Shown here piece after piece: positions 8,013 to 41,833 of a stretch of DNA of 64,000 nt (the stretch's first letter is position 1; each line of letters begins with the position of its first letter). The notes below the pieces were generated by a model that was given only the letters and a program-made list of their open reading frames with translations, was not told the origin of the DNA and searched no databases. The translations under genes were made by a program, and so were the position numbers. The stretch is taken from assembly GCA_013387205.1 (NCBI GenBank), contig WARV01000001.1, positions 86 to 64,085 of the forward strand, in the 5' to 3' direction. The DNA comes from Patescibacteria group bacterium (GTDB lineage: Bacteria > Patescibacteriota > Doudnabacteria > UBA920).

Positions 8013-8013
8013 T

Positions 8014-10807: not shown

Positions 10808-10809
10808 CA

Positions 10810-12346: not shown

Positions 12347-12409
12347 TAACTTAGTTGTTATTTGTTCGCCCCCCTTATCCCAATTGAGGGGGACGACAAT
12401 TGGGAAACA

Positions 12410-15109: not shown

Positions 15110-15182
15110 ATATCATAGCGGAATTACAACCTTAGAAGATGTGATCAACCAGCTAAACGAACATTTTAAGGAAAATGCCTAA
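15042..15182 (+). CDS. Small hypothetical protein (46 aa)
   Basis: AAGGAG RBS; MAKVTIKNLGEIQQ...KENA*; overlaps both neighbours. Confidence 0.5.
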   Translation: MAKVTIKNLGEIQQAPKEKFQIKYHSGITTLEDVINQLNEHFKENA

Positions 15183-20828: not shown

Positions 20829-21072
20829 TATGATACCTGACAATCCCCTTAATAATCCACCGCAACCACGTTCCGACATAATGCCTTTACATAATCACGA
20901 CGGACAGACTTCGCCACGCATTAGTCCTGAAAATTTATTGGGCTTTCCTCTTATGACAGCCGTACCAACCGACAACGCACCAGACAATATTATTCGCTTA
21001 GCATACATTTCTGGCACTTATTATTTATACGCAAGAATTAATAAAACCTGGAAACGGGTAACATTAACTTAA
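20821..21072 (+). CDS. Small virion protein
   Basis: HNHDG motif, WKRVTLT end. Confidence 0.6.
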   Translation: MPNMIPDNPLNNPPQPRSDIMPLHNHDGQTSPRISPENLLGFPLMTAVPTDNAPDNIIRLAYISGTYYLYARINKTWKRVTLT

Positions 21073-21077
21073 ATTTT

Positions 21078-23279: not shown

Positions 23280-23280
23280 T

Positions 23281-24981: not shown

Positions 24982-25012
24982 TTATTAAGATAACTAATGA
25001 AGCTAGTGGCAT
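24887..25012 (-). CDS. Small membrane peptide (41 aa), antisense to end of ejection gene
   Basis: MPLASLVILIIIAFAVEHDYSKYQARTKTPVSFWQYFVGKR*. Confidence 0.45.
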   Translation of the reverse strand: MPLASLVILIIIAFAVEHDYSKYQARTKTPVSFWQYFVGKR

Positions 25013-25032
25013 AAATTTAGTTACTAAATACC

Positions 25033-25752
25033 TTAATTATTAACTGGTATTACTTGGTTAGTGATAGTATTGATGAACTTAAAATTTCTCAAGATAATTT
25101 GTGCGTCGGTAATTCCCGTGTAGTTTGGTATCATTGGCAATCTGACTTCACCAGAAAGCTTGTCAGTAGTAACGACAACCTTTTGATTTAAATTGTTTAC
25201 TGGTGCGATATCAATATTTGCTTGAATGAAATTATTATTCTGTATTCCATTAACCAGTACATACGGATTAGGCAAAATACCGGGTTTTAAACTAACCAAT
25301 GCATCAAAAGTTAAAGTGTTGTAACCCTCGGTATTTTCTTTGTTACTGGAGCAAGTATAAGTTCCGCCAACATTAAAATATGTAGTCTGACAATGGAATA
25401 CTAAAGGAGTAGTGACTGGCGTGGTGGTCTGGTTGGATGACGGAGTTTCAACTGTACCTGCCGGTTGAGGAACATACACAGGGACATAAACAGTTTCGGG
25501 TGTTGATTGCGGAACAGGAGATTGTCCAGAAGTTTGAGGTAGAGAACCTAAGCCTAAAGCTTGCCTAGTAGTAACTGTACCATCTTTCTTTAAGCACTCG
25601 CTATTCATAAAACAGATATATTGCGGTTCGGTAATTGAAACAGTAGTGTCAAAGATATTTCCGTCCAAAAATCCCATTAAAGCAGCTTTCGCAGGAGTAT
25701 ATATAGTGAAACCTAAAATAGCAAAAACCGCATAAAACAATGTTTTTTTCAT
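25033..25752 (-). CDS. Secreted protein (moron-like)
   Basis: Signal peptide MKKTLFYAVFAILGFTIYTPAKA; P/T-rich linker; opposite strand. Confidence 0.75.
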   Translation of the reverse strand: MKKTLFYAVFAILGFTIYTPAKAALMGFLDGNIFDTTVSITEPQYICFMNSECLKKDGTVTTRQALGLGSLPQTSGQSPVPQSTPETVYVPVYVPQPAGTVETPSSNQTTTPVTTPLVFHCQTTYFNVGGTYTCSSNKENTEGYNTLTFDALVSLKPGILPNPYVLVNGIQNNNFIQANIDIAPVNNLNQKVVVTTDKLSGEVRLPMIPNYTGITDAQIILRNFKFINTITNQVIPVNN

Positions 25753-25780
25753 AAATTTGTTTTAGTTAATTGACAATTTA

Positions 25781-25809
25781 GTTATAGACCCAATTAATTA
25801 TTTTGTCAA
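25781..25809 (-). promoter_or_regulatory. Sigma70 promoter for moron
   Basis: TTGACA-17-TATAAC on - strand. Confidence 0.65.
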
Positions 25810-25917
25810 ATTTAAAAGGGGCCTCTCGCTGAGTAAGCAGCGATTAGCCCATAAGACTAACCCATCTGCTTACTCAGACGTTACCCATAACTTATACCTA
25901 ATTAAATTTCTTGTCAA

Positions 25918-26178
25918 ATGGCAAACTTTACCACCCAAACTAAATCCGCATCTGTTTTTACAGGACAAGCCAAATCTTCTGCTCCGACTTTTGCCAATGC
26001 CACCAAAAATTCGGCATCGTTTTCCATAGTTGACAAATTGGTTTTGCTACTTCAGGAAATGGGCGATTTTCTTTTAATGGAAAATGGGGATTTTATTCTA
26101 GTTCGTGGTGTTAGCGATTACGGTTTTGCAAATCCTTCTAAAAACAACAGTTCATTTACCAATTTAACTAAAAACTAA
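25918..26178 (+). CDS. Small virion-associated protein
   Basis: F-T-x-x-x-K-N/S repeats; LLQE.GDFLL.E.GD motif. Confidence 0.6.
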   Translation: MANFTTQTKSASVFTGQAKSSAPTFANATKNSASFSIVDKLVLLLQEMGDFLLMENGDFILVRGVSDYGFANPSKNNSSFTNLTKN

Positions 26179-27203
26179 TGGCAAATAAGAAAATATCAGA
26201 ATTAACAACTGGAACACCCCAAAATACTGATTGGGTTCCTTTTGTTGACATAGCAGCCGGAGAAACAAAAAAAGCCACCAAGTCTGATTTGAAAGGTGAT
26301 AAGGGTGACACCGGAAACGCCGCCACTGTAAATGTCGGCTCAACCACTACAGGGGCAGCAGGCACTTCGGCTTCCGTTACCAATTCCGGCACGACTTCTG
26401 CCGCTATCCTAAACTTTACTATTCCAAGGGGAGATACAGGGGCAACCGGAGCGACAGGGGCAACTGGCCCACAAGGGGCAAAAGGAGACACTGGAAATAC
26501 AGGTGCAACAGGGCCACAGGGTATCCAAGGCATTAAAGGTGATAAGGGCGTAAACTGGAAAGGCGCATATAGCGGTTCAACTGCCTATATTATCGACGAC
26601 GCTGTTTCTTACAATGGCAGTTCTTATGTTTGTATATTAGCTTCCACCGGAAACTTACCTACCAATACGACTTATTGGAATTTGATGGCGCAAAAGGGTG
26701 CGGATGGCTCAGGTTCCGGTTCCGGCGACGTTACCGGCCCCGCTTCCTCCACAGATAACGGCATAGTTAGATTTGACGGCTTGACAGGCAAGATAATCCA
26801 AAACTCTACTAACGTTGTGATTGATGATTCAGGCAACGTCGGGATTGGGACGACGAATCCGAGCGAAAAATTAGATGTAAATGGCAACATCACGAATGAA
26901 TATTTGACTTTAGCGGGAAACCAATTCAATGCGGTGGGAACTTCCAATGAAATCGCCGTAAATTATGCTAATAAAACAAAAGATTTGCATGTTTATACAA
27001 ATGTGGGAAACGGATTTTTGGTACAAGGAAGCAGCGGCAACGTCGGCATTGGGACGACTACACCAACAGCCTACCTCCATTTAAAGGCCGGTACAGCCAC
27101 GGCAAACACCGCTCCGATTAAATTAACCGCAGGTGTTGTGAATACTACCCCAGAAACAGGAACTATTGAATTTGATGGGACAGATTTCTATTTAAACATT
27201 TAA
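26178..27203 (+). CDS. Collagen-like tail fibre protein
   Basis: G-x-y repeats; WKGAYSGSTAYIIDDAVSYNGSSY module; GNVGIGTT repeats. Confidence 0.85.
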   Translation: MANKKISELTTGTPQNTDWVPFVDIAAGETKKATKSDLKGDKGDTGNAATVNVGSTTTGAAGTSASVTNSGTTSAAILNFTIPRGDTGATGATGATGPQGAKGDTGNTGATGPQGIQGIKGDKGVNWKGAYSGSTAYIIDDAVSYNGSSYVCILASTGNLPTNTTYWNLMAQKGADGSGSGSGDVTGPASSTDNGIVRFDGLTGKIIQNSTNVVIDDSGNVGIGTTNPSEKLDVNGNITNEYLTLAGNQFNAVGTSNEIAVNYANKTKDLHVYTNVGNGFLVQGSSGNVGIGTTTPTAYLHLKAGTATANTAPIKLTAGVVNTTPETGTIEFDGTDFYLNI

Positions 27204-27221
27204 TAAACTAACTAAACTAAT

Positions 27222-27491
27222 ATGGAATATATCAAGCAGGACGACAACACTTTAAAAGTTGTCACCCAGGTAGAAGTGCCTCAGACAGAAGAAAAGACTT
27301 ACGACTATGATTTTTTAAAGTCGCAAGAAGTTAGCATCTTAAAAAGCAAGAATGACTTTATCCAGGCCAGGGACAAGGAACTCGATGAAGTAAGGGGACT
27401 TTTAGCCCAGTGTGAGGCTTTGGGGATTAAGAGCAAGGTAGAAAGCGAATTGGCAGAGCAACAGGCGATTGAGCAACAATTAACAAAATAA
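27222..27491 (+). CDS. Hypothetical (fibre chaperone-like)
   Basis: Position, coiled-coil character. Confidence 0.55.
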   Translation: MEYIKQDDNTLKVVTQVEVPQTEEKTYDYDFLKSQEVSILKSKNDFIQARDKELDEVRGLLAQCEALGIKSKVESELAEQQAIEQQLTK

Positions 27492-27493
27492 CT

Positions 27494-27643
27494 ATGACTT
27501 TAAACGACTTAAAAGCCAGGGCTTATGACCTATTAGCGGCCATGCAGTCTATCCAAAACCAGCTTAATGAAGTCAACGGCCAGATAGCTAACTTTAAAGA
27601 AGAAGTAAAGGAGAATAACGATGGCGACAAGATACAAAATTAG
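27494..27643 (+). CDS. Small coiled-coil protein
   Basis: MTLNDLKARAYDLLAAMQSIQNQLNEVN... translated by hand. Confidence 0.55.
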   Translation: MTLNDLKARAYDLLAAMQSIQNQLNEVNGQIANFKEEVKENNDGDKIQN

Positions 27644-28163
27644 AACCAGCAGGGATATTACCGATGCGGCTTTGACTGTGTTGGGGAACACTTCAGGGAC
27701 AAATACCGGCGACCAGACCATTACCCTAACCGGCGACGTGACCGGTTCGGGGACAGGTTCGTTTATCACGACCTTAACTGGCAAGCCTACTGGTGCGATT
27801 GTCGGCACGTCCGACACTCAAATATTGACCAATAAACGCTTCACTGCCCGCATCGGCACGGAAACCTCTTCTGCCACTTCTACCCCCACTGCCGATACGG
27901 TTGACCAGTGGAACGTTACGGCCTTGGCAGCGGCTGATACCGTGGCTGCGCCGAGTGGCACTCCCACGGACGGGCAGATGCTGATCTTGCGGATAAAGGA
28001 CAACGGAACAGCGAGAACTTTAACATGGAACGCTATCTATCGAGCTTCTAGTGATTTAGCTTTACCCACTACTACCGTGATTTCCAAGACTATGTATCTT
28101 GGGTTTGTATACAATGTGGCTGACAGCAAATGGGACTTTTTAGCATTTTTAAATAACTTCTAA
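27621..28163 (+). CDS. Tail fibre-related protein
   Basis: SGTNTGDQT, TGDVTGSG, DGQMLILRIKDNGTARTLTW motifs. Confidence 0.7.
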   Translation: MATRYKIRTSRDITDAALTVLGNTSGTNTGDQTITLTGDVTGSGTGSFITTLTGKPTGAIVGTSDTQILTNKRFTARIGTETSSATSTPTADTVDQWNVTALAAADTVAAPSGTPTDGQMLILRIKDNGTARTLTWNAIYRASSDLALPTTTVISKTMYLGFVYNVADSKWDFLAFLNNF

Positions 28164-28165
28164 TT

Positions 28166-29620
28166 ATGGCAAATCTCTATGTTCGCAAAGCAGGGTCTGA
28201 TTCCAATAACGGGTCTACTGCTGCTTTGGCAAAACTGACGATTGGCTCAGCAGTCACAGCGGCTTCCGCTGGTGACAATGTTTATGTTGGCGCGGGTGTC
28301 TACAAGGAAGCCATCTCCGCCGCCGCCAAGCAGATAAACATCATTGGGGACATAACCGGAGCCAGCACGGGCGACGCTGGGGAGGTTATCCTCTCTGGAC
28401 TTAATGCTACGGATGACGGTTTTGGTGCGAATTTCACGCATGACTTAAGCTCTGGCGGTTCTCTGCAAAATCTGATTTTTTCTGATTGGTATACCAATAC
28501 AGGCACTTCTCTCATTTACTGCAATACACCGTCTAATGCCTTTTCGGTCACTGACTGCAAGTTTGTTAACATCATGTTTGGTACGGGCTTACAAGTTTTT
28601 GTCTTTAACTGGAATAGTGGCACGGGAGCCTTAACCCTCAAGCGGTGCGGTTTTTACAACTGCTGGCAGTATGGTAATAACAACTTTGCTGTAGTGCGGA
28701 TTTGGGACGGAGCGTCAGCTACCAAGCCGGTTATCGAAAACGTTGAGGTGGCTTTCTGTGGTGTTGCTCAAAATAATACCTCTGCCACAGTTTTCGGGTT
28801 TCGGCTGCTTACAGGGTCGGCTGGAACCTGGTCTATAAAAAACTGTTCTGTTCATGACTGTTCCTGGTTTGATTACGCCAGCAACGGCTCTGCGACTATT
28901 GCCTTTTCTATTGAAGGCTCTTTCATGCCCAGCGCCTATAACTGCTCGGTTTACAATATCCTATCCTATAATTTTGCTACTAATTACGGGTTTAAAGCTG
29001 ATAACAGCTGCACGGCCTATAACTGCAACGTGTTTAATACGAAGAGTGCTGGTAGTGGAACAAACACTGCGTATTCGACTATAACTAACAGTGGTGGAGT
29101 AGCTAAAAGTCCTTATCCCCTGCCGCCAGTCGCCTTGTTCTCTCGTTTTTCACCTTTGGCAGGCGCGGGTAACGCCACGGGCGCATCAGATGACATCTTT
29201 GGTAATCCTCGCCCTGCCTACGGCAACACCAATGGCAGTATTGGCACGGTTGAAGCAACCTTTAACAACGTCCAAAGAGACACCGTCGCTCCTGATGCGG
29301 GAACTTATGACTTAAGGGTTAACCCTCCCCAATACTTCAAGCGGACATTCCAAATACCGGTGACAGCTTCCACCGCGCGCACTGTGACAGTAAAAATCCG
29401 GATTGATGGCACTTGGCCTGCGGGAAGTCGCCCTAAAGTAACTCTTTCTGGGCAGGGGATGACTCTTTCAATCGCAACCAAAAACTCCACGACTGGGAGT
29501 TATGAACAATTGAGCGTATCAGGAACACCGTCCACAACCGGTCTGGCAACTTTAACTATCGAAGCGCACGCTACCAACACTGACGCTGATATGCACGTTG
29601 ATACAATAGCGTTATCTTAA
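28166..29620 (+). CDS. Beta-helix receptor-binding/tailspike-like protein
   Basis: YVRKAGSDSNNGS...AGDNVYVGAGVYKE start; N/C-rich parallel beta-helix periodicity; DIFGNPRP. Confidence 0.7.
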   Translation: MANLYVRKAGSDSNNGSTAALAKLTIGSAVTAASAGDNVYVGAGVYKEAISAAAKQINIIGDITGASTGDAGEVILSGLNATDDGFGANFTHDLSSGGSLQNLIFSDWYTNTGTSLIYCNTPSNAFSVTDCKFVNIMFGTGLQVFVFNWNSGTGALTLKRCGFYNCWQYGNNNFAVVRIWDGASATKPVIENVEVAFCGVAQNNTSATVFGFRLLTGSAGTWSIKNCSVHDCSWFDYASNGSATIAFSIEGSFMPSAYNCSVYNILSYNFATNYGFKADNSCTAYNCNVFNTKSAGSGTNTAYSTITNSGGVAKSPYPLPPVALFSRFSPLAGAGNATGASDDIFGNPRPAYGNTNGSIGTVEATFNNVQRDTVAPDAGTYDLRVNPPQYFKRTFQIPVTASTARTVTVKIRIDGTWPAGSRPKVTLSGQGMTLSIATKNSTTGSYEQLSVSGTPSTTGLATLTIEAHATNTDADMHVDTIALS

Positions 29621-29622
29621 CT

Positions 29623-29805
29623 ATGGCTTATACTGACTTAGGCACATTTGAAAATTGGCAGGACGCATCTACTCCCCCAAGTGGTTTTGTTTCGAATGAC
29701 TTCAACACATTTGAGCTTTGGCAGAACGCATCTACTCCCCCTCTAGTCTTTAACGAAGTAGGCACATCTCCGCGCAACTCCAACTTCTTCCTCTTTTTTA
29801 AGTAA
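29623..29805 (+). CDS. Small protein with internal duplication
   Basis: TFExWQxASTPP twice, 63-nt period. Confidence 0.6.
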   Translation: MAYTDLGTFENWQDASTPPSGFVSNDFNTFELWQNASTPPLVFNEVGTSPRNSNFFLFFK

Positions 29806-29880
29806 AACCCCCGTCCTCTGCCTGGTAAGAGGCAGGAACGAGGGTAAAACAATCTTAACACTTACCGGGAATTAAGCAAT

Positions 29881-30111
29881 ATGCAAGAAGAATCATTGGA
29901 GGTAAAACTCGCAAGATTAGACGAAAAATTAGATTTTGTCCTTAGAGATATAAAGGAATTAAAAGACGATACAAAATTGCGGGTAGATAAGCTTGAAACA
30001 CGGGTGGATAGGTTGGAAAAATCAGCCGGATTGTTTAAGGTTGTGGCCTGGGGCTATTACGTTATTGGTGCCGGTGTTATTGGTTTGCTCATTTATCATA
30101 TAGCGAAATAA
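29881..30111 (+). CDS. Holin/XhlA-like coiled-coil plus TM protein
   Basis: Coiled coil then C-terminal TM; start of lysis block. Confidence 0.65.
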   Translation: MQEESLEVKLARLDEKLDFVLRDIKELKDDTKLRVDKLETRVDRLEKSAGLFKVVAWGYYVIGAGVIGLLIYHIAK

Positions 30112-30113
30112 TT

Positions 30114-30983
30114 ATGATTACAGGATGTTTACCAGATGAATTTGATAGTCGAGATTTTAAAGCCGAACCGCTTTTAGGCGCTTCTCCGGCTGTTGATTTT
30201 GAAAATAACCCATTATTTTTACCTAAGCCTCCGCTTTGGAATCAACAATCTTCCGATTCTTGCGTGGCTGCGGCTTGGAGTTATTACAAGTGGCAGTTAA
30301 GGAATAAAAGTTATTGCCGCAAGTCTATTTTTGCTTACATCGCGCAACAGTACGGGGCTTACATTCGGGACGGGGGACTAAGGGTAGTTAAATATGGAGT
30401 AGAAACCACGGACGAAACTCCAGACCCGGAGATTAGGACACCGGAAACAATGAGGGACAAGACTGGGCTTAATGAAAAGGACGCCTTAGACGACAGGGAA
30501 TTAGATAGTAAGATTGTCCCTAATAATATTGACGACACGGCTAAGGCTATTAGGGATTATAAAGGTGTTGTATTCGGAGTTACCGGACACAATGAGGGGT
30601 GGATAGATAAATCTAATCCTACGCCCCCGCCGCCGACCACGATGTCTGATAAGTTATGGGGACACGCTTTGTATTTATATGGCTACCACCTCCACGACGG
30701 GCAGAAGTGCGTTTTAGCCCGTTCTTCCTGGGACGAGTTAGACCATCACATTAAAGAGGAATATTTTTCCAGCGGAAATACTTTTTCGCCTTGGACACTT
30801 ATTCCGAGAAAGGACAACATGATAAAAAAGTTTATAGTGCAGGACGGTTCAAAATTAGGAGTGATGCTATTAGAGGGTGAAACCGGCATAGTGCAGTTTG
30901 CGCCGGATATGGATTCCTTTAAGAAACTTAGCGAAGTCGCTAAACTAGACACCCAAACTAAGACCATCGCCATACCGGAGTAG
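30114..30983 (+). CDS. Papain-like (C1) cysteine peptidase, putative lysis enzyme
   Basis: NQQSSDSCVA (Gln/Cys), GHALYLYGY (His), RSSW. Confidence 0.8.
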   Translation: MITGCLPDEFDSRDFKAEPLLGASPAVDFENNPLFLPKPPLWNQQSSDSCVAAAWSYYKWQLRNKSYCRKSIFAYIAQQYGAYIRDGGLRVVKYGVETTDETPDPEIRTPETMRDKTGLNEKDALDDRELDSKIVPNNIDDTAKAIRDYKGVVFGVTGHNEGWIDKSNPTPPPPTTMSDKLWGHALYLYGYHLHDGQKCVLARSSWDELDHHIKEEYFSSGNTFSPWTLIPRKDNMIKKFIVQDGSKLGVMLLEGETGIVQFAPDMDSFKKLSEVAKLDTQTKTIAIPE

Positions 30984-30984
30984 A

Positions 30985-31436
30985 ATGCGAAATTTTTAAA
31001 AGGCTGTCTGCTTTTGGGATTCGGGATTAGCTTGCTAGTCGTGTTTCCAGAAAAAGCCGTTAGCCTGACAACGCCTCCGCCTGAATTTCCAGTATTAGTC
31101 GCTGATCCAAATATAACCGATAGGTTATATGACGAATGGCGGATGGTAAGAAAAAAGGTTAATAGTGATTACTGTTCCTGTGTCGATACCGCCCGTGCCT
31201 TGTCGGGAATAAATGTCGGACCAATAGGGTATGCTAAAAATCATCCTATTAATTCCAATACCCCAAATGTAGGAGCGATAATCGTAACAAGCGAAAGTTA
31301 TTACGGACACCTAGGAGTGGTGATTGCTATAAACGGTGATACTCTCACAATTCAAGAAGGAAATTATTTCAAATGCCAATTATCCAGCCGAAAAATAAGC
31401 ACAAACTACGACAAGATTATTGGCTATTACCATTAA
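30985..31436 (+). CDS. CHAP-like amidase/peptidase with signal peptide; start ambiguous (possible -1 slip)
   Basis: SCVDTAR, GHLGVV, QEGNY motifs. Confidence 0.7.
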
Positions 31437-31488
31437 TTTATTTAGCAACATTAATCTATTGGCTGTTTATTTATACAGCCCTAAACCA

Positions 31489-31656
31489 ATGAACACTAAA
31501 CTCAAATTAGCCTTTCACTTATTGGCTCAAATCTTAGTGCAGGGAGCCGTGGCCGCTTTAGTTCCGCAAGGCGGGGAAAAGTATTATGCCGCAGTAGTTG
31601 CCATTGTCGGAGTCGTCGTTGCTTTCTACGACAACCAAACTGCCCAACAGCCGTAG
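31489..31656 (+). CDS. Holin-like two-TM protein
   Basis: Two hydrophobic segments in lysis block. Confidence 0.55.
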   Translation: MNTKLKLAFHLLAQILVQGAVAALVPQGGEKYYAAVVAIVGVVVAFYDNQTAQQP

Positions 31657-31675
31657 CTTTTAGCTACGGTTTTTT
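31651..31675 (+). terminator. Rho-independent terminator
   Basis: CCGTAGCT-TTT-AGCTACGG followed by T6. Confidence 0.75.
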
Positions 31676-31777
31676 GGCGGAAGGCGGAACCATTGGCGTC
31701 GCAATTCTTTCAAAGCCAGTAAGTCCTTTGGTCAATCCGCTTTCCACCTAAGAATTAATTGGTAAGAATTAATTTCA

Positions 31778-32536
31778 ATGAAGTATTTAGAAAGTGCCAT
31801 TGACCAACCAGAGGCGTATATTATCCCAATAGGGGACTGCCATATTGGAGATAGGGCTTTTGGGAAAAGAGGATTAAAACTATTACAGGGGTATCTTGAT
31901 TGGGTTAAGGAACATAAAAACGCCAGGATATTCTTAAACGGAGATATTTTTAATTGCGCTTCCAGGAATTCCAAGACTTCACCTTTTGAAACTGATAGTG
32001 ACGAATACCAAAGAGCCATAGATATATTTAAGCCTTACGCTTCGCAGATTATTGGGGCAAATGACGGAAACCATGAAGCCCGGATGTTCGACGAGTTCGG
32101 CGTTTCCCCTTTAGCATTTTTCTGCCGGGAGCTATCCATACCTTATTGCAAATATTCAGCGGTAGTTAGGTTGATGGTTGGAAAGCGTAACACGCAAGGA
32201 TATAGGGAAGATTACTATTTATATTTTCACCACACGACAGGGGGCGGTGGTAGCCTTGGCAGTAAACTCAATAGGGTCGTTAAATTGAGGGATATTGTCG
32301 AGGGGATAGATGTTTATGTCGGCTCGCATAACCACACTTTAATTACTGCACCACAAGAAGTATATTATCCAACGCAACACGGGGTTCAGAAAAGGCAAAT
32401 TTGGCACGTTGACGCCGGTTCATTTTTGGAATACGAAGACACTTATGCGGAAAAGGGGATGTTGCCGCCATCAAAATTAGGAAGTCCCCGCTTAAGGTTT
32501 GATAGCAAAAAGCATGACGTTCACGTTTCAATATAA
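31778..32536 (+). CDS. Calcineurin-like metallophosphoesterase
   Basis: GDCH, NGD, GNHE, HH, SHNH motifs. Confidence 0.9.
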   Translation: MKYLESAIDQPEAYIIPIGDCHIGDRAFGKRGLKLLQGYLDWVKEHKNARIFLNGDIFNCASRNSKTSPFETDSDEYQRAIDIFKPYASQIIGANDGNHEARMFDEFGVSPLAFFCRELSIPYCKYSAVVRLMVGKRNTQGYREDYYLYFHHTTGGGGSLGSKLNRVVKLRDIVEGIDVYVGSHNHTLITAPQEVYYPTQHGVQKRQIWHVDAGSFLEYEDTYAEKGMLPPSKLGSPRLRFDSKKHDVHVSI

Positions 32537-32631
32537 ATTTATGGAAGATTCACCACTACATTTTAAACTTACAGACCACGACCCGATTACGGAAGAAGAT
32601 TTAAAATTTGAACCATTAAACGAAGGAGAGG

Positions 32632-33120
32632 ATGATTAATATGGAAGAAAAATTTTTACATTCCAAAGCTCTTTCACCCAATCCCAAAGACTTGCTTGGC
32701 ATGAAAAAGGTATCTATTACCAAAGTTCCAGCTACCGCACTTGCTCATTGCGCTCATGCCATGATGAATGGGGCTGATAAGTACGGAGCGTATAATTGGC
32801 GTGACAAAGCTGTATATGCTTCTATTTACGTTGACGCCTGTTTCCGTCACCTAACGGCCTGGTTTGAAGGTGAAGAAATTGCAACTGATTCCAAAGTTCA
32901 CCATTTAGGACACGCTATGGCTTGTCTGGCAATTATTCTTGACGCCAAAGAAACTGGCAACTTAATTGACGACAGGCCGGTAAACGACCAATCGCGCGGC
33001 GCATATACCAAGGTTTTAGCTGGAATGAATGAAAAGTTTACAGCTAACAAGGACTTAAAAGAGCAAATTATGGAAGAATGGGCTGACAGTGAAGCCTGCC
33101 AAAAACTAGCGGATAAATAA
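32632..33120 (+). CDS. dATP/dGTP diphosphohydrolase N-terminal domain (DUF5664-like)
   Basis: NPKD..G.KK, GADKYGAYNWR, RHL.AWFEGE, HHLGHA.ACLAI. Confidence 0.85.
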   Translation: MINMEEKFLHSKALSPNPKDLLGMKKVSITKVPATALAHCAHAMMNGADKYGAYNWRDKAVYASIYVDACFRHLTAWFEGEEIATDSKVHHLGHAMACLAIILDAKETGNLIDDRPVNDQSRGAYTKVLAGMNEKFTANKDLKEQIMEEWADSEACQKLADK

Positions 33121-33238
33121 ATGCCGGAAAACGACATCTGGAATGGTTCGTTTTCTCTTTTTGCCACTGTAATAGGGGATGATTGGGACGACGAAGATGA
33201 AGAATGACTACCACGATTGTGGTGAATTCTCACTACGA

Positions 33239-33385
33239 TTCCTTTTTAGCCAGCAGGCGTGGGGTTGCCATCCCATACAAAACGATTGCGGCTTATGGAT
33301 AAGAGGCAACTGATTCCATAACCCAACAAATTTCAAGCAGACGAGGTGTCGTTTCCTTTTCTGCCGCCTGCTGGTTGAAAGGGAA
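33239..33385 (+). ncRNA. Candidate structured RNA with possible kissing loop
   Basis: 21-bp closing stem with G-U pairs; internal hairpins; GTTGCC/GGCAAC complementarity. Confidence 0.5.
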
Positions 33386-33465
33386 ATATAACCTATAGAG
33401 AATATTCTTTTTTTAAGCGGTCATACAAGCCCTAGGAAATTGCATGACCACTTTAAGGAGGAGCT

Positions 33466-33651
33466 ATGGAGCTGGCAGTCGGACTTCAAGTATTTAAAAA
33501 TGGCGTCCCTGTCCGGCTTCTATACAGGGTTGCCCAACTGGAGGGAAAAGAAATTTGGCACACAAAACCACTTTTTGTAAAGCAACCTGAAAGGGATGAA
33601 GTATTTGAGCCACACGACAGGATAACAAAACTACACACCCAAAAGGAGTGA
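33466..33651 (+). CDS. Small hypothetical protein
   Basis: AGGAGG RBS. Confidence 0.6.
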   Translation: MELAVGLQVFKNGVPVRLLYRVAQLEGKEIWHTKPLFVKQPERDEVFEPHDRITKLHTQKE

Positions 33652-33718
33652 TTATGATACGTTACAACCGTAAACGTTGCAAAAGGAAGAAATGGCCAAA
33701 ACACAAATAACCATGCCC

Positions 33719-33743
33719 GCCGGAGCTATAATCCGGCTTTTTT
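33719..33743 (+). terminator. Rho-independent terminator
   Basis: GCCGGA-7-TCCGGC followed by T6. Confidence 0.7.
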
Positions 33744-34020
33744 ACTGAAACATAAAAGTTTTTTTGACGTTTTAATATACGATTTGACAGCTTTTTAAAA
33801 TAGGCGTATACCTAAGACATAATAAACTAAATAACCACTTATAACCTGTTAAATCGGGTTGCCCCAAATAAAGGGGGCTTGCGGATAAGTGATCAGACTA
33901 AAGGCCATTATTTGTGATACAATAAGAGCCTAGCCCTAAGTTTGGAAACAAAAATAGTGGCCAAAATTCTGTCTGTCACCATAAAGCCCGCAAGCTGAGT
34001 GGTTGGCAGGCAGTTTTTTT

Positions 34021-34890
34021 ATGAACAACGCGATTGTTACTTATTTGGAGTGGAAGGGGATAGCCCATGAGAGAGCATCTAAAGCCTATATAAAACCATT
34101 ACACAGGCTGGCTGAATATTTAAACAAAAAAGTTAGTGAACTTACTACGGATGATGTAAAAAAGTTCCTCAAATATTTAAAAGAGGAGCTTCCCAAGCTG
34201 TCTACAAGGGGGGATTGGCGCACAAACTTTTATTTCCATACGAATGTCATCCGTGATTTTATTAAACATTGGAATGATGAGGGGGTGTGTAATGTAAGGC
34301 CAGGAATTATCGAGGTTCCCAAGTACAGTTTCAACCCTTACCCATCGGTTACTATTGAAGAATTTGAGATGATGGATGATTATCTAGCCACCGAGCCAGA
34401 CAATTTTGCCAATCTTCAGAAACGGATGATTATACACTTTTTATGGTGGACGGGCGTTAGGGTATCAGAGCTTACCGATTTAAGATGGACTATTATTAAC
34501 CAATCCGAGCAGGGATTACCAATAAAAAATAAAAAGAACGGTGATATCAGATATATATTTTGGCCACCCCAAACCCACTTACTGCTTTTAAGATTTATCA
34601 GGGAAAGAAAACAGTTTACTGGGAATAGCCTATTAGTGACTTACCTGGGGAAAATGCACCCTCGCTGTGTCCAAAGGTTTTTAGAAAATTTAGGGAAAAA
34701 ACTGGGGATAACTTACCACCTATCACCACACTGTTTTCGTCAGGGTTGGGCAAAATATAGGTTGGAAAAGGGGGCGGATCTAAAACTAATAAAAGACGGA
34801 TTAGGCCACACTTCTTACGATTCTACGGACAGATACTTAATACTAAATTATAAACTGCAAAGGGAAAGAGCGGTGAAATATTTGACATAA
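34021..34890 (+). CDS. Tyrosine recombinase/integrase (XerC/D-like)
   Basis: TGVRVSE (R), KNG (K), HCFR, LGH, DRY catalytic residues intact; no long arm-binding domain. Confidence 0.92.
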   Translation: MNNAIVTYLEWKGIAHERASKAYIKPLHRLAEYLNKKVSELTTDDVKKFLKYLKEELPKLSTRGDWRTNFYFHTNVIRDFIKHWNDEGVCNVRPGIIEVPKYSFNPYPSVTIEEFEMMDDYLATEPDNFANLQKRMIIHFLWWTGVRVSELTDLRWTIINQSEQGLPIKNKKNGDIRYIFWPPQTHLLLLRFIRERKQFTGNSLLVTYLGKMHPRCVQRFLENLGKKLGITYHLSPHCFRQGWAKYRLEKGADLKLIKDGLGHTSYDSTDRYLILNYKLQRERAVKYLT

Positions 34891-34910
34891 GGTGTTAGTG
34901 GTATTATGAT
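34882..34910 (+). promoter_or_regulatory. Sigma70 promoter with TGTTAGTG box in spacer
   Basis: TTGACA-17-TATGAT. Confidence 0.7.
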
Positions 34911-34919
34911 TAGGTTAAT

Positions 34920-35075
34920 ATGGCTTATCCAAAAAACGAAGAACGAAATAAAGACTTGGTGAAGAAGCGTAAAAAAGACCCTAAGAAATGGACGTGGGGA
35001 GCTTTAGCTAAACATTTCCGAGTGGCTCGCCCTACCGCTGTTCAAATTTATAAGCGATGGGAGCATATTTATTAA
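34920..35075 (+). CDS. Small basic HTH-like protein (51 aa)
   Basis: MAYPKNEERNKDLV...WTWGALAKHFRVARPTAVQIYKRW. Confidence 0.65.
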   Translation: MAYPKNEERNKDLVKKRKKDPKKWTWGALAKHFRVARPTAVQIYKRWEHIY

Positions 35076-35100
35076 TTGTTAGTGCTTGTGGATAACTTTC

Positions 35101-35129
35101 TTGACAAGTGTTAGTGCTTGGTATATAAT
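35101..35129 (+). promoter_or_regulatory. Consensus sigma70 promoter facing the prophage end
   Basis: TTGACA-17-TATAAT; TGTTAGTGCTTG direct repeats at 35077 and 35109; DnaA-box-like TGTGGATAA at 35087-35095. Confidence 0.8.
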
Positions 35130-35272
35130 ATAAATACCACTGAAAAAAATCCCTCGAACCTTGAAAATCCCATATCAATAAACAGTCTGGTTGGTTTAAC
35201 CCCTAGAACCTTGTTTATTGCTTAAAAACGCCTTACCCCGCCCCTTTTGTGGCGGGGAATGAGAATAATATC

Positions 35273-35300
35273 GCGTCGGACAATGTATGTTGCGCGACAT
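35273..35300. other. dif-like 28-bp site at the prophage/host junction (candidate attR/dif)
   Basis: GCGTCGGACAA-TGTATG-TTGCGCGACAT; spacer resembles canonical TGTATA; gene strand bias flips here. Confidence 0.65.
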
Positions 35301-35932: not shown

Positions 35933-37123
35933 TTAATTTCCACCATTTTGTTTATAGCATCCTAAAATTTTAGGCGCATAGTTTCTTGTTTCGTTATAGC
36001 CAGTATTACACGTAGCAGTGGATCCTTGTGGGCCATTATAGAGACATTCCCATTTCTTTGTCGGCTGTCCTGCGCAGTCGTTTTGCCCTGCGCAAGTGAC
36101 GCTGTTTTGGCAGGCCATGCTGCCTCCGTTGTATCCAGCGGCGATATTTCTAACGTCGTTGCCGCAGCCATTGCGGCTAAGCAACTCTAAATATTTTGCT
36201 CCGATGCAAATGCTCTTGGTCGCGTTATTTGGGTTATTAAGCCATGCGCATGTTATGTTATCTGTCACTCCGCATGATGATTTTAAGTTGTTTGCCGTCT
36301 GGGGCAAAAGCTGCATAAGTCCGCACGAACCTGCATTAGATGTTGAATTTATATTACAACTCGATTCATTAACCATAATGGATTTAATTAGCGCTTCAGT
36401 ATTAATTCCTGGGATGCTGATTGCCGCAGCTGCATCCTTTATTGCAGTCCCATAATTGTTGCAATTGCTGTTCCAGCAAGTTACGTTTGCTGCTTGGCAC
36501 AAGTTGGCTGCTGTCATACTACTTACATTGGAACATGACCCATTGACTGAATTAACGCCAGCCTGATCGCGGGCAACGCCCTGGTATAAATTGGCAGTCG
36601 GAGCTTCCATTAACTCCAATCTTACACTCTGCGGCTGGATATTTTGGAATTTGACCAGGTCAGGATTAATAGCTCTTAGGAAGATAAAGCCAATGAATAA
36701 AATGATTAAGGATGTTACGGTACTGACTAATATGTTTTTCGCTTTGTCTACCGATTCCTGGCTGCCATCTGCAGACATATAAATATATCCGGCTATAACA
36801 ATAAAAAATACGCCGATTATGGAAGCTAAGATTATGGAAAAGCGATAAAGCCTGTTGATGCAGGTGTAAAGGTCGTTTTGGGCAGCATTATTTGCACCTA
36901 CTTGGCTGTCTGACCCGGTACCGAAAAAACTGCCGTTTTGGCTCCAATATTTTCCTTGGTTATTTTCAGTCGGCGCGCACAAATATTGTTTAATTTGGTC
37001 AGACACATGGTACTGGGTGTAATTTGGCGAGCTGCTAGTTTGTGCAAAAGCTAAATTTGCATAAGACAAAATAACTTGGACAAGAAGAAATGCCAAAAGA
37101 TATGTTTTTAATTTATTGGTCAT
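35933..37123 (-). CDS. TrbC/VirB2-type pilin domain fused to SLT lytic transglycosylase
   Basis: IIGVFFIVIAGYIYMSADG...KAKNIL...INPDL; SLT motifs NESS, GLMQL, AAGYNGG, ETRNY. Confidence 0.85.
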   Translation of the reverse strand: MTNKLKTYLLAFLLVQVILSYANLAFAQTSSSPNYTQYHVSDQIKQYLCAPTENNQGKYWSQNGSFFGTGSDSQVGANNAAQNDLYTCINRLYRFSIILASIIGVFFIVIAGYIYMSADGSQESVDKAKNILVSTVTSLIILFIGFIFLRAINPDLVKFQNIQPQSVRLELMEAPTANLYQGVARDQAGVNSVNGSCSNVSSMTAANLCQAANVTCWNSNCNNYGTAIKDAAAAISIPGINTEALIKSIMVNESSCNINSTSNAGSCGLMQLLPQTANNLKSSCGVTDNITCAWLNNPNNATKSICIGAKYLELLSRNGCGNDVRNIAAGYNGGSMACQNSVTCAGQNDCAGQPTKKWECLYNGPQGSTATCNTGYNETRNYAPKILGCYKQNGGN

Positions 37124-37164
37124 TTTATTTAAAACGATCTTTTAATTTTTATTTCAAAAAAATA

Positions 37165-38460
37165 TTATTGTAGGAAATCTAAAGGATTATAAGTGTAGCC
37201 ATACGGGATCTTGTAAGGCCCGTAAATTCTGCCGTAGGCACCGTCGGATACCCCGAAGCCTTCTGCGTCGTAAACGCCAAAATGGATGTGGTAGCCTCTC
37301 TCCGGACCGTAAAGCTTTTTGGTTGTATTGCCGGTATTGCCTTCGTAACCGATCAAATCTCCTTGCTGCACTTTTTGCCCTGGTTTTACAATAAAGCTCC
37401 TGAAATGAGCGTATAATGTAATAATTTCTCTTGTACCGGTTTTTGTCGAAATGGAATGCTTAATTGCCACCCAGTTGCCGTAAGAAGCATCGGACCTGTC
37501 AGTATACAAAACCGTGCCGTCAGCTGCCGCATAAATCGGCTGGGCAGCCGGAGCCGCCACGTCAATACCGTTGTGGAAGTTGTATCCTAAGGCGGTAAAG
37601 CCCGTATTGCCGTATTTTTGCGTCAAAACGCCATCCATAGGCCAGGCAATAACGCCTTTTGACGGATTAATAGACCTGTTGCCGAGCTTGGTTCTGATTT
37701 TGCTATCCAAGTCTTCTATCTCTTTTTGCAAATTTTGTTCTTCTGTTTTACTGACAGATAGAAGTTTTTGGTAATTGCTTTCCAAACCGCGTGTCTGGTT
37801 TAAAAGCGTTTGCTTTTGGCCGCGCTGCTGGTTTAAGGAATCTTGGGTGATTTGCAGCTGGTTTTTCAGCTCCATCATTTTATCCATGTTAACCTGTAAT
37901 TCGTGCTGCTGCTGTTCCATCTTGGCTTTTAAATCTTTGATCTTTTGGGTCAGTTGGAAAATTTTATCCTGATAGCTTTGCGTGTATTGGACCTGGTCCA
38001 AAAATTGCGATAGGTTTTCGCTGCCAACTGTCGTCCTTAAAGCGTATTCGCCGTCAAATTCGTTTAATTCCTTAATCAGCTGGGCTAGGATTTTTTTATT
38101 TTCCTGAATGTCCGCAGCTTTTTGCTCAATCATTTTTTGCAGCTCGCTGATTTGCAACTTGGTATCTTCAATCTGGGTTTCTTTGGCTTGGATTTGCAGC
38201 TCAGTTGCGGCTATTTGATTATCGTAAATGGCTATTTCATTTTTTAAAGTGTTCGATTTTTTCCTGGTTTCGTCAATCTGCTGGGTGTATTGTTTAATCT
38301 GCTTGTTCAAACTGTCCAATTTCTTTTGCGTTTCGGATTTTTGTGCGTTAAGCTGGTCAACTGTGGAATCTGCCAGGGCATTATAAAAACCCAAGCTGCC
38401 AATTAAAAGTACAGCCAATAAACTCAAGGCTTTTGTTTTTATTTCTTTTCGGTATTTCAT
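37165..38460 (-). CDS. Coiled-coil M23 peptidase (EnvC/CwlO-like)
   Basis: Signal peptide, long coiled coil, HNGIDV, YAH, HIHF. Confidence 0.9.
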   Translation of the reverse strand: MKYRKEIKTKALSLLAVLLIGSLGFYNALADSTVDQLNAQKSETQKKLDSLNKQIKQYTQQIDETRKKSNTLKNEIAIYDNQIAATELQIQAKETQIEDTKLQISELQKMIEQKAADIQENKKILAQLIKELNEFDGEYALRTTVGSENLSQFLDQVQYTQSYQDKIFQLTQKIKDLKAKMEQQQHELQVNMDKMMELKNQLQITQDSLNQQRGQKQTLLNQTRGLESNYQKLLSVSKTEEQNLQKEIEDLDSKIRTKLGNRSINPSKGVIAWPMDGVLTQKYGNTGFTALGYNFHNGIDVAAPAAQPIYAAADGTVLYTDRSDASYGNWVAIKHSISTKTGTREIITLYAHFRSFIVKPGQKVQQGDLIGYEGNTGNTTKKLYGPERGYHIHFGVYDAEGFGVSDGAYGRIYGPYKIPYGYTYNPLDFLQ

Positions 38461-38535
38461 TGCTATTATTATACCACAAATTGCTGTTTTTTCGTAGATA
38501 ATGCGCAAAATCAAAATAGTATGCGAATTATGCGA

Positions 38536-38563
38536 AAAACCCCGCCTCTTAAAGAGGCGGGGT
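38536..38563. repeat. Repeated hairpin/terminator (copy 1)
   Basis: AAAAACCCCGCCTCTTAAAGAGGCGGGGT; near-identical copy at ~63491. Confidence 0.7.
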
Positions 38564-38573
38564 AAAATATTTA

Positions 38574-40088
38574 TTATAATTTATCCATCCCTGTCTGTAG
38601 CCGCTTTATCACTTCGTCTTTACCGTATCCCAAAGCCAGGACGGCTGCCACGTCAAACGGGGGCGGGCTGGCCTGCATGCCGGTTAGAGCCGCGCGCATT
38701 GGCCAAAGAACCGATCCGTTATCAAAATTATTATTTGCAATGAAATCTTTAATTTCTTTTTCCAATTCAGCTTTTATAAATTTATTTTCAGAAAAGCCTG
38801 ACAATAAGTCTGTAAGCATTGATAATTTATTTTTAGCATCTGTTGCATCAGCTTTTTTCCAAACCAGCAGGGAAGCGTCGTATTCCGGAAGTGCAAAAAA
38901 ATATTTCGTCCTCTCCCCTATCTCAGAAAGTTTTTTTAGCCTCTCTTTTTCCAGGACAGTAATCGCTTCCAAAAACCCGCGTTTAAATTTTTGCGTGTCA
39001 ACTCCACTCTTTTGCCAGTATGGAATGAGTAAATCCGTAAGCTCCCTATCCGTTCTGCTGCGGATATACAAGCCGTTCATCCAATCCAGTTTGTTAGTAT
39101 CGAAAATCGCGGCGGCTTTGTTGATTTTTGCCAAATCGAACTGGGAAATTAAATCCTGCATGGAGAAAATTTCCTGCTCAGTCTTTGGGTTCCATCCCAA
39201 AAACGCGACAAAGTTAACGAGTGCTTCCTTCAGGTAGCCTTTATTCAAAAAGTCTTCCACCGCCACGTCGCCCTGGCGCTTGGATAATTTAGTTTTGTCA
39301 GGATTAACAATAAGCGGGATGTGCGCCATTAGCGGAATTTGCCAGTTGAATGCCTGGTAAAGCAAAACATGCTTTGGCGTAGACGGCATCCATTCCTCGC
39401 CGCGGATTATGTGGGAGATTTGCATGAAGTGGTCGTCGATCACTACTGCCAAATGGTAGGTCGGAAAACCGTCGGACTTCAACAGAACATGGTCGTCCAA
39501 TATTTTGTTTTCGTAGGTAATGTCGCCGTAAATTAAATCGTGGATGACTGTTTGCCCTTCCAGTGGTATAGCGAATCGAACAACAGGGTTTCGTCCTTGC
39601 TCGCGGATTTTCGCCATTTCTTCTTCAATTTGCTCTTTGGTCAAATTGCGGCATTTTCTGTCATACATCGGCGGTTTTTTAAGCGCTACCTGCTCTTTGC
39701 GCACTTCTTCGAGCCGCTCTTCGCTACAAAAACAATAGTAGGCATGGCCTTTGCTGATAAGCTCTAACGCATGCTTCTGGTAGAGAGGCAAGCGCTGCGA
39801 TTGCAGGTATGGGGCAAGCTCCCCTCTTTCTTTAACCTGATTGTTTTCGTCTAAATAAAATCCTTCATCGAATTCAATCCCGAGCTGCTTCATAACCTTC
39901 AAAAGATTGTCTACCGCGCCTTCCACGAGCCTTGTCCTGTCCGTATCCTCAATGCGCAAAACCAGCTTGCCGTTATTTTTCCTGGCAAACAAAAATTCAA
40001 ACAGCGCTGTCCGCAAAGATCCAATGTGGACATACCCTGTCGGGCTCGGCGCAAAACGCACGCGGATTTGTGAGGTCGTATCAGTCAT
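38574..40088 (-). CDS. gltX: Glutamate--tRNA ligase
   Basis: RFAPSPTGYVHIG (HIGH), LRIEDTD, KLSKR. Confidence 0.97.
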   Translation of the reverse strand: MTDTTSQIRVRFAPSPTGYVHIGSLRTALFEFLFARKNNGKLVLRIEDTDRTRLVEGAVDNLLKVMKQLGIEFDEGFYLDENNQVKERGELAPYLQSQRLPLYQKHALELISKGHAYYCFCSEERLEEVRKEQVALKKPPMYDRKCRNLTKEQIEEEMAKIREQGRNPVVRFAIPLEGQTVIHDLIYGDITYENKILDDHVLLKSDGFPTYHLAVVIDDHFMQISHIIRGEEWMPSTPKHVLLYQAFNWQIPLMAHIPLIVNPDKTKLSKRQGDVAVEDFLNKGYLKEALVNFVAFLGWNPKTEQEIFSMQDLISQFDLAKINKAAAIFDTNKLDWMNGLYIRSRTDRELTDLLIPYWQKSGVDTQKFKRGFLEAITVLEKERLKKLSEIGERTKYFFALPEYDASLLVWKKADATDAKNKLSMLTDLLSGFSENKFIKAELEKEIKDFIANNNFDNGSVLWPMRAALTGMQASPPPFDVAAVLALGYGKDEVIKRLQTGMDKL

Positions 40089-40120
40089 AAATTTGGGGTT
40101 AACTTTATAATTTTACCATT

Positions 40121-41473
40121 TCATGCGGTTTTTATCAATTCGGGCATCTGGGACAAATCGCTTAAAACCAATTTAATAAGTTCAGATTTTTGTTCGGTTA
40201 TGCTCTCTTTTAAATTCTGCCAGGGAACCCATTTGTATTCCACAAACTCATCCCAATCCAAGACGACTTCTTTTTCCTGCCCGAAAAATTTAAAATATGC
40301 AATTTTTTGTTCTTGGCCTTTGTAGTGATATCTCTTCCCAATGAACAGCGGCCTTTTGCCCATATCCTTCCAAAGGTACGCATGGGAATGGTTGGATATT
40401 TTAATCAAGTTGACGCTTCTCATTGCCGTTTCTTCCCAAAGCTCACGCTTTGCTCCTTCTGCAACATCTTCCCCAGGCTCAATCCCGCCCTGCGGCAACT
40501 GCCAATAATTTTCAAAATAATTTTTTGGATAGCCTAAAACATTAATCACTCCTTTTTCAGGATTGAACTTGCCAATAAAAATTTCGTTTTTGTCGTTCAG
40601 TACAACACTTACTACATTGGGCCTATAGGGCAGGCTTAAAAATACTTTGGTTTTGATTAATGCCCAAATTAGGCCAAAGGTGGCATTAAAGATGCGTTTA
40701 ATTCTGTAAGGCTGGGTAAATAGCCTAAATAGCCATTCTAGGCCCATTTTACGCATAAATTTGGGCGGATTTAGGCGTTTTCCTGCCAGATAATCAAAGG
40801 TACCGCCTAGGCCGATAATCATTTTTACAGGCAAATTTTCAAGGTTGGCCGCTATCCAGCGCTCCTGCTTAATTGGCCCGTATGCGACAAATAACAGGTC
40901 GGGTCGGGCTTTTTTTATGTCCTCGATTATACTGGGATCGTCTGGATTTTTGCCTGAAAAAAACAAGGACTGATTTTGACGGCCGTTTAAATTGGTCATA
41001 TGCGAAGAGAGTTTGTTTGCGGCCAGTTTTGCCGTATCGCCAAAACCTCCAAGCAAATAAATTGACCAGTTATTTTTGGCAGCCATCTTTGCCAAATCCA
41101 AAACCAGAGACGAGCCGGGAATGGTTTCTTTGATTTCAGATTTCACCCAGGAAGGCTTGAACAAAATTGCAGCCACACTGTATTTGGCTTGCCAGATCGC
41201 CTGGATAATTTTTGTGTAATATTTTTTCGCGGTAAGCGGGATAGTCACGTACTTGGCAGCCCAGATAATTCCCATGCCATCAGCAACCGCTATGTCTGCT
41301 TTGTTGAGCATGTCCAAAATTTTGCGGTCATTTAAAGCCGCCAGCAGAAATTCGGAATATAAAGTTGTCATCCAGGTTTTTTGGTTTTGCCTGATGCGAT
41401 TTTCTAAATTTTCAAGCAGTTCATTTTTACTAAGCTCGTCTACCTTTAACCCGGCAATATCTATCTTATTCAT
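40121..41473 (-). CDS. WecB/TagA/CpsF glycosyltransferase fused to RppH-like NUDIX domain
   Basis: ADGMGI, VAYGPIKQE, GLGGTFD, GLEWLFRL; YRPNV, WQLPQGGI, RELWEET. Confidence 0.88.
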   Translation of the reverse strand: MNKIDIAGLKVDELSKNELLENLENRIRQNQKTWMTTLYSEFLLAALNDRKILDMLNKADIAVADGMGIIWAAKYVTIPLTAKKYYTKIIQAIWQAKYSVAAILFKPSWVKSEIKETIPGSSLVLDLAKMAAKNNWSIYLLGGFGDTAKLAANKLSSHMTNLNGRQNQSLFFSGKNPDDPSIIEDIKKARPDLLFVAYGPIKQERWIAANLENLPVKMIIGLGGTFDYLAGKRLNPPKFMRKMGLEWLFRLFTQPYRIKRIFNATFGLIWALIKTKVFLSLPYRPNVVSVVLNDKNEIFIGKFNPEKGVINVLGYPKNYFENYWQLPQGGIEPGEDVAEGAKRELWEETAMRSVNLIKISNHSHAYLWKDMGKRPLFIGKRYHYKGQEQKIAYFKFFGQEKEVVLDWDEFVEYKWVPWQNLKESITEQKSELIKLVLSDLSQMPELIKTA

Positions 41474-41542
41474 ATATAATAGTATAACTGATTTTAACAT
41501 TTTTAGGTATCCAAAATTAAAAAAATAAGTTATAATGTACAC

Positions 41543-41833
41543 ATGGAAAGTATAGGAAAAATTGTTAAAATTAAGGGCAAATCGGAAAGGCAAAAGGTTA
41601 AAGTTAACCCTTACCTTCACTCCCCTGCCCACCTTTTGGCCGACGAGTTGTGCCTGAAATTTAATGATAAAAAGCACTTCGGGTTTTACTTGAAAATGGC
41701 CACTCTGTATGACCATAATTTTTTAAGGAATTTGGCCGGGCAAGTGTTGGAAGGCAAAAACGTCAAAACCCCGGGGAAGCTGTTCGCATATTTGATTAAG
41801 AAAAACAATCAGGAGAAGAAAATTTTTAATTGA
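41543..41833 (+). CDS. Hypothetical protein
   Basis: ORF track. Confidence 0.65.
   Translation: MESIGKIVKIKGKSERQKVKVNPYLHSPAHLLADELCLKFNDKKHFGFYLKMATLYDHNFLRNLAGQVLEGKNVKTPGKLFAYLIKKNNQEKKIFN

Follow-up and report, generated by a model that had tools for sequence, protein, structure and literature searches.

We analyzed a window of 64,000 nucleotides (G000:C1:86-64085; by the window we mean this whole stretch of DNA) from a 1.30-Mb genome that is held in 24 contigs and is 98% complete. We take the host to be a CPR bacterium, since one record of its order bears the label Patescibacteria. The window contains the right-hand part of a prophage and the host genes beyond it (Table 1). We found genes for both terminase subunits, a major capsid protein, an adaptor, and a tail fiber, which place the phage in the Caudoviricetes; a CHAP match also falls in the prophage region (1 to ~35.3 kb). 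Neither Pfam nor PHROGs named a portal. No tail tube or sheath was matched, so the phage is likely short-tailed. Within the virion module, a TPR-glycosyltransferase, three more glycosyltransferases, and a DegT aminotransferase lie at 12779-18349, and this block possibly serves in capsid glycosylation. The recombinase gene is preceded by a metallophosphoesterase gene (31778-32536), a dATP/dGTP diphosphohydrolase-like gene (32632-33120), and a 61-aa ORF without a family (33466-33651). By eye, an ORF similar to the last is present in the prophage of G047 (L206:13395-13580).

Table 1. Features of the prophage and its surroundings (positions are those of the window unless another contig is given).
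Feature	Coordinates	Strand	Remarks
Right-hand 35 kb of prophage	1..35284	+	Part inside the window
Left 7.5 kb of prophage	G000:C5:1-7538	minus	Outside the window
Terminase small subunit (terS)	5551-5964	+	Pfam/PHROGs matches
Internal dif mimic between terS and terL	5987..6014	+	26.7 bits, dif profile
Terminase large subunit (terL)	6543-8012	+	Pfam/PHROGs matches
Virion module, including glycosyltransferase/DegT block	11504..27203	+	
SU10-type major capsid	11504-12346	+	
SU10 adaptor	18346-19077	+	
Tail fiber	26178-27203	+	
Phage Xer-like tyrosine recombinase	34021..34890	+	289 aa; core-binding and catalytic domains only; ATG start
51-aa basic ORF with helix-turn-helix look	34920..35075	+	Between recombinase and att
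16-bp core common to attL and attR	35269..35284	+	Contiguous identity: 4 flanking bases, 11-bp left arm, first spacer base
attR	35273..35300	+	Exact 28-mer: phage left arm, host spacer, host right arm; intact dif regenerated
Host genes right of dif: SLT/T4SS-pilin, M23 peptidase, GluRS, WecG-NUDIX	35933..41716	-	

The 51-aa ORF had no family match. A promoter-like site lies upstream of it (34882-34910), and small ORFs that appear similar by eye hold the same position in G047, L300, L301, and L219. We regard this ORF as a candidate directionality factor or repressor. Closer to attR, a DnaA-box-like 9-mer stands ahead of a promoter that fits sigma-70 at 12 of 12 positions and is aimed at attR (35087-35129). 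A terminator follows on the host side of attR (35312-35334), and in the phage circle this transcript would stop at a T-tailed hairpin that we noticed by eye ~30 to 60 bp inside attL on G000:C5.

A preliminary description of this DNA had placed a dif-like site of 11-6-11 geometry at 35273-35300, ~380 bp after an XerC/D-sized recombinase gene, at the point where phage genes stop and the coding strand flips. We confirmed that this 28-bp site is the right end of the prophage. Its position proved exact, the arms form an inverted repeat at 7 of 11 positions, the spacer TGTATG agrees with the E. coli TGTATA at 5 of 6 bases, the recombinase stop codon lies 382 bp before attR, and host minus-strand genes follow. 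A genome-wide mismatch search returned four other 28-mers within 9 mismatches of attR, two of which keep the 11-6-11 geometry. The left partner of attR is at C5:7538 (minus strand), with a host ferredoxin gene on one side and phage early genes (NinG and a DNA methylase) on the other. We also looked for a different att duplication and found no other repeat of at least 14 bp common to both junctions within 1.5 kb of either one.

From attL to attR the element measures 42,895 bp plus a small gap between C5 and C1, giving a prophage of ~43 kb. The facing ends of C5 and C1 both break inside one ORF with an Ala/Ser repeat. We searched for an exact sequence overlap between these contig ends and found none, and thus the join rests on the shared Ala/Ser ORF and on synteny. 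The assembly is broken by several families of short dispersed palindromic repeats, which occupy contig ends and intergenic gaps. We compared the junctions with read contigs (contigs only) from three soil runs of a single study that possibly include the source sample. One read contig spans attR with zero differing letters. Another, at a depth of 3.5, starts precisely where the shared core does (35269), which hints at the fork expected with an empty site. Among the loose ends listed for the read contigs of these three runs, no attP junction was present.

We then asked what the site is to the host. From the sites in the window and a single relative, we derived a dif-type palindromic pattern. It occurs in 87 of the 146 genomes in the order, mostly at one site each, and its reversed control matched 8 genomes. 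The commonest spacer among the matches listed was TGTATC. With a dif profile made from 28 loci, mainly from relatives and with attR itself included, three sites in the genome scored above 13 bits (26.7, 26.5, and 18.0), all in or at the prophage, and the next best scored 12.6. In four relatives (G005, G016, G091, and G099), the empty site stands uninterrupted in the order cysteine desulfurase, dif, SLT/pilin, M23, GluRS, and the genes beside it are the same ones that flank the two prophage ends in G000. A first search of relatives had given matches in 16 of 41 genomes, mostly by chance, with only G013 informative. G005 has two sites, but we rejected the idea that they enclose a further prophage, and likewise that the second sites in G016, G067, G059, and G033 are prophage ends, because these second matches fall inside or among host genes.

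Polar 8-mers learned on 19 other contigs were centered on GGGGA, and from seven words tried we used RGGGGAD. On C1 alone, without scaffolding, the change point of this word falls at 34293-35621, and the site is at C1:35358; we counted 19 forward and 6 reverse copies to the left versus 3 forward and 23 reverse copies to the right (p 3.5e-6). On the scaffold with the prophage removed, the change point is at 93153-94024 and the site is at 93760. All 8 relatives tested, chosen from the 87 for their long contigs, show the same reversal of this word at the site (p 1.7e-9 to 7.5e-3). Inside the phage we counted 27 forward and 9 reverse copies, a bias confounded by gene strand. The suggestion of a tailed phage integrated at the chromosome terminus is supported by the related site at the left boundary, by the empty site in relatives, and by the flip of the polar word. 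The objection of a distant skew switch applies by half: cumulative GC skew, computed on a four-contig scaffold (C3-C5-C1-C23) joined through repeats, rises to the site, flattens, and peaks ~87 kb further on (7% of the genome), so that skew alone does not put the terminus there. The host carries an FtsK gamma domain and one tyrosine recombinase besides that of the phage, on C17. We infer that FtsK reads an RGGGGAD-type, KOPS-like word and that the 28-bp site works as the host dif with FtsK. The site is most likely where the host unlinks its chromosomes, and the prophage is almost certainly integrated at this dif.

A second site of this kind lies inside the prophage, between terS and terL, and its spacer has 4 of 6 bases as in the consensus of the order. 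The exact CPR-type motif occurs in 93 viral stretches, versus 11 for the reversed pattern. A TerL match is present at 26 of the viral motif loci, and the site lies upstream of terL in 25 of them, although these 26 are a biased set, since the TerL of the window and nine of the viral motif loci went into the profile used. The spacers at viral sites of the terS-terL type are more host-like, with a mean of 3.5 of 6 bases. We rejected convergence of the polar word on such sites, as the trend is opposite (86 towards and 146 away, at 76 distinct loci). The internal site is likely one at which the host Xer resolves phage multimers. We also rejected the idea that the prophage is really two elements in tandem that meet at the internal site, since terS would then be parted from terL.

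The phage recombinase begins at an ATG, although the ORF finder had placed its start at an upstream TTG (34003). It matches Phage_integrase (PF00589) and a PHROG integrase. The catalytic set R147, K171, H237, R240, H263, and Y272 is present in full, and 30 relatives show no variation at R147, H237, R240, H263, or Y272; judged by these residues, the enzyme is catalytically complete. It is a tyrosine recombinase of the simple type (R-K-H-R-H/W-Y), and the mark of the lambda and Tn916 types, an N-terminal arm-binding domain, is absent: the protein aligns with XerC/D from its first residues, and its AF2 model (pLDDT 94.5; best Foldseek match, archaeal XerA 5hxy) opens with the core-binding helices. 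Its scores are below the NCBIfam cutoffs for XerA (121.5/220), XerC (90.6/335), XerD (89.3/330), and XerS (39.8/267), and it is 25% identical to the host Xer. In a FastTree tree of 137 rows (SH-like support, no one-clade test), it falls in a clade of 97 rows (support, 98), whereas 15 host Xers group separately (support, 100). We rejected the possibility that this gene is the host's own xer beside dif, as in XerS systems, because it lies inside the att ends, a separate host Xer is encoded on C17, and the two belong to different clades.

The 16-bp core shared by attL and attR has 2 copies in the 1.30-Mb genome, where ~0.0005 would be expected by chance. The identity extends 15 bp to the left of the spacer and ends one base into it. 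The whole phage spacer (TTCAGC) is in attL and the whole host spacer (TGTATG) is in attR; they are the same only at positions 1 and 4 and differ at 4 of 6 positions. By eye, weak conserved AT-rich motifs lie ~6 to 12 bp outside both dif arms in L022-L051. The phage flank of attR resembles these AT-rich motifs, and the dif-type site may extend beyond 28 bp.

Ordinary Xer recombination requires matching spacers. The reading that we prefer, with a little more belief than doubt, is that the phage's own Xer-like recombinase integrates this tailed prophage at dif by one strand exchange followed by host replication, in the manner of VGJ. According to this model, the phage recombinase, alone or in a mixed synapse with the host Xer, would do the cutting, and one pair of strands is predicted to be exchanged where the left arm meets the 6-bp spacer. 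Host replication would then likely resolve the junction, leaving attL with the phage spacer and attR with the host spacer. One exchange at the left spacer edge plus replication yields exactly the attL and attR that we found. The mismatched spacers would keep the host Xer and FtsK from excising the prophage, an intact dif would stay at attR, the direction of recombination would be set by the small ORF next to attR, and the terS-terL site would let the host Xer resolve multimers of the phage. The homology beside the predicted cut is 1 bp only, and the 15 bp of identity to the left of the spacer, which exceeds the need of an edge exchange, counts against this model, as does an initial A in 3 of 8 viral attP spacers, since neither end of the common host spacer has that base to match it. 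VGJphi, with an attP that differs from its target at four central positions, is described as taking the same route (PMC5357621, PMC4246890).

Evidence on the enzyme itself comes from its relatives. Scans with the single recombinase protein or with a 4-row alignment found nothing; four scans gave 174 loci, from which we removed near-duplicates and loci with less than 700 bp downstream. With thresholds of 170 bits for the clade and 9.5 for the arm, both set after the data had been seen, and with kin that are not independent, a dif arm lies within 700 bp downstream of 71 of 90 distinct in-clade genes (median distance, 194 bp) and is below threshold in the other 19. By comparison, an arm was present upstream in 2 of 75 cases, in the second 700 bp downstream in 7 of 78, and downstream of 3 of 22 genes outside the clade. 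In 7 of the 9 viral contigs that we looked at, recombinase, site, and recombination or replication genes follow one another; this order is that expected of attP, and the circle rebuilt from the prophage has it too. At clade attP loci the RGGGGAD-type word points towards the site 36 times and away 18 times, which is confounded by gene strand. Outside the clade, generic XerC-like genes lie by a near-perfect CPR-type dif palindrome in viral contigs L075, L105, and L144.

Two clade members lie in CPR genomes. In G047, which belongs to another family, tail and lysis genes are followed by a clade member, a small ORF, two dif half-sites separated by a 10-N scaffold gap, and then M23, GluRS, and WecG, the genes that also lie right of dif in G000. 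In L253, with gene names read by eye, RadC and HicAB-like genes precede a clade member, a site, and then rpmA. We looked for the left ends of both elements and found neither, which leaves one attL/attR pair in all.

We consider it probable that the phage enzyme is involved in integration. An unlikely alternative is that the element is a true IMEX, integrated in VGJ style by the host's single Xer, with the phage recombinase kept only for excision or some other task. The attP has two host-type arms that are symmetric at 9 of 11 positions, and the same arm occurs near host xer genes (23 of 28 loci versus 37 of 320 background stretches). In G000, a dif half-site lies 137 bp upstream of the host xer gene (C17; L002:980). 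Elsewhere in the order, host xer genes (L178-L205) have a half-site nearby, often upstream. Such half-sites suggest autoregulation, and a host Xer that recognizes this arm would likely bind attP too. This alternative also draws on the viral loci with the exact CPR-type motif, since 77 of the 80 fetched contain no tyrosine recombinase in the fetched DNA (≤4 kb on each side) and none of the 3 that do has one from the clade. It has a precedent in LME-1, a short-tailed phage described as an IMEX of the host XerL (PMC9765430, PMC12407071).

Against the IMEX alternative, the catalytic residues are kept in all 30 sequences, the distance from recombinase to att is conserved, and the clade retains the arm in Bacteroidota, where Xer arms differ. 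In-clade genome loci are labeled Bacteroidota in 47 of 52 cases, isolates included. In two chromosome-level Bacteroidales (G146 and G147), the arms of the host dif are of a different sequence, and 0.9 and 2.1 Mb separate it from the element; the arm there is therefore not a mimic of the host dif but travels with the enzyme. For the same reason, we rejected the view that the Bacteroidota elements sit at the host dif with a hybrid XerD arm, and a hybrid left end sought in the 80 kb around each of these two elements was not found. The earlier suggestion that the phage possibly used its own Xer gains comparative support from the coupling of clade and arm, but the separate host Xer, which has a half-site of this arm upstream of its own gene, may have acted instead.

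Conjugative-transposon integrases of the Tn916/Tn1549 type exchange both pairs of strands despite mismatches in the coupling sequence. If the phage enzyme did the same and the heteroduplex were sorted by replication or repair, the end product would be identical to that of a single exchange. We think this quite unlikely. It would account for attP spacers that look random: beside clade recombinases (8 viral contigs and the window, n = 9), spacers agree with the host spacer at a mean of 2.3 of 6 bases, where random agreement is 2.1, a result that fits the single exchange as well. It would also fit the 11 of 75 clade loci in which an inward-facing arm lies upstream of the gene as well, with unrelated spacers and degenerate outer arms, as in elements with relaxed targets. 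However, with two exchanges the host spacer should often enter attP, and only 1 of 9 attP-type spacers is host-like, on a contig that stops 124 bp past the site. Which base opens the spacer depends on the type of arm (38 C/T and 19 A/G of 73), as a short homology test would give, and the enzyme is without an N-terminal arm-binding domain.

In the bracketed recombinase genes (L255, L327, L365, L352, L360, and others), the arms are ~1.3 to 1.5 kb apart. From this arrangement, the bracketed genes could possibly be like a minimal mobile unit, or the arms like an autoregulatory operator. Several arm-bracketed clade loci in Bacteroidota adjoin RadC and defense-like genes.

Very unlikely, in our judgment, is integration between identical spacers, or by a crossover inside the 16-bp repeat, with attL altered later so that the spare dif was silenced in the style of LME-1 and the GGI: the 16 bp of exact identity include an arm variant that is rare in the order, and LME-1 is stabilized by a dif copy with three altered bases (PMC9765430, PMC12407071), but four spacer changes would be needed while the attL arms remained 9/11 symmetric, free-phage attP spacers of the clade are equally unlike the host's, and the only good dyad in the rebuilt attP (8/9) and attB (7/9) is centered on the 6-bp spacer, whereas a dyad inside the repeat reaches 5/9 at best, which argues against an ordinary overlap there.

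Integration by the phage's own recombinase through one strand exchange has parallels and differences among known systems. VGJphi, a 7.5-kb filamentous phage that represents the VGJ-type IMEX of Vibrio cholerae, has no recombinase and uses the host XerC and XerD (PMC5357621, PMC4246890). Like VGJphi, this phage has a double-stranded attP that mimics dif, with four central differences on one side; an intact dif is restored at one end, and the att ends fit one strand exchange completed by replication. Unlike VGJphi, it has a tail, a length of 43 kb, and a gene for a recombinase, and its host has a single Xer and near-symmetric arms. A tailed phage at dif is already known in Legionella, where the 22-bp att of LME-1 is identical to dif, central region included (PMC9765430, PMC12407071). 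Both are tailed phages at the dif of a single-recombinase host, with an intact dif at one end; here, however, the spacers differ at 4 of 6 positions and a dedicated recombinase lies beside att.

The host resembles the single-recombinase systems XerS/difSL, XerH/difH, XerL, and archaeal XerA (PMC5357621) in having one Xer, a palindromic 11-6-11 site, and FtsK. A polar word converges on the site, and the phage protein folds like XerA. In contrast to those systems, dif and the host xer lie on separate contigs, and neither the consensus of the arms nor the polar word is the same; the gene beside the site is that of the phage and is below every curated Xer cutoff. The Tn916/Tn1549 integrases (6en2 and 6emy are fold matches only) likewise yield a product that contains the entire spacer of the target as well as that of the element, and they tolerate central mismatches. 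Those integrases have an arm-binding domain and relaxed targets, whereas the phage protein is without that domain and lands at dif in CPR bacteria. Prophages of Vibrio that target dif are described as being without an integrase (PMC12715192). Our element shares with IMEXs integration at dif through a dif-like attP but, unlike them, carries an integrase of its own; from its att geometry, it appears to work like an IMEX of the VGJ type. In a literature search that covered few subscription journals, we found no Patescibacteria dif and no tailed phage with its own dif-reading recombinase, nor did we find this recombinase clade described.

We tentatively put forward a wider joint reading, in which our doubt somewhat exceeds our belief. 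A widespread clade of compact Xer-like integrases would read the Patescibacteria dif arm and recombine 28-bp sites with almost no spacer homology, and it would serve two uses: tailed CPR phages would land at dif with it, and Bacteroidota islands would use it off dif at relaxed targets, while the mimic between terS and terL would be read by the host.

For an order of CPR bacteria without cultured members, these data pin down the dif site and supply a KOPS-like word, together with a complete temperate phage with both att ends, and they indicate that dif is a recurring landing site for the tailed phages of CPR bacteria. The elements described at dif borrow the host Xer; a phage recombinase that itself reads dif and tolerates mismatches would, if true, be a different solution. 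Such phages would hide from excision by the host Xer and FtsK while landing at dif unaided, and one phage genome would run two Xer-type sites with different enzymes and different jobs. If the phage enzyme does read dif, it could serve as a landing-pad tool in CPR genetics.
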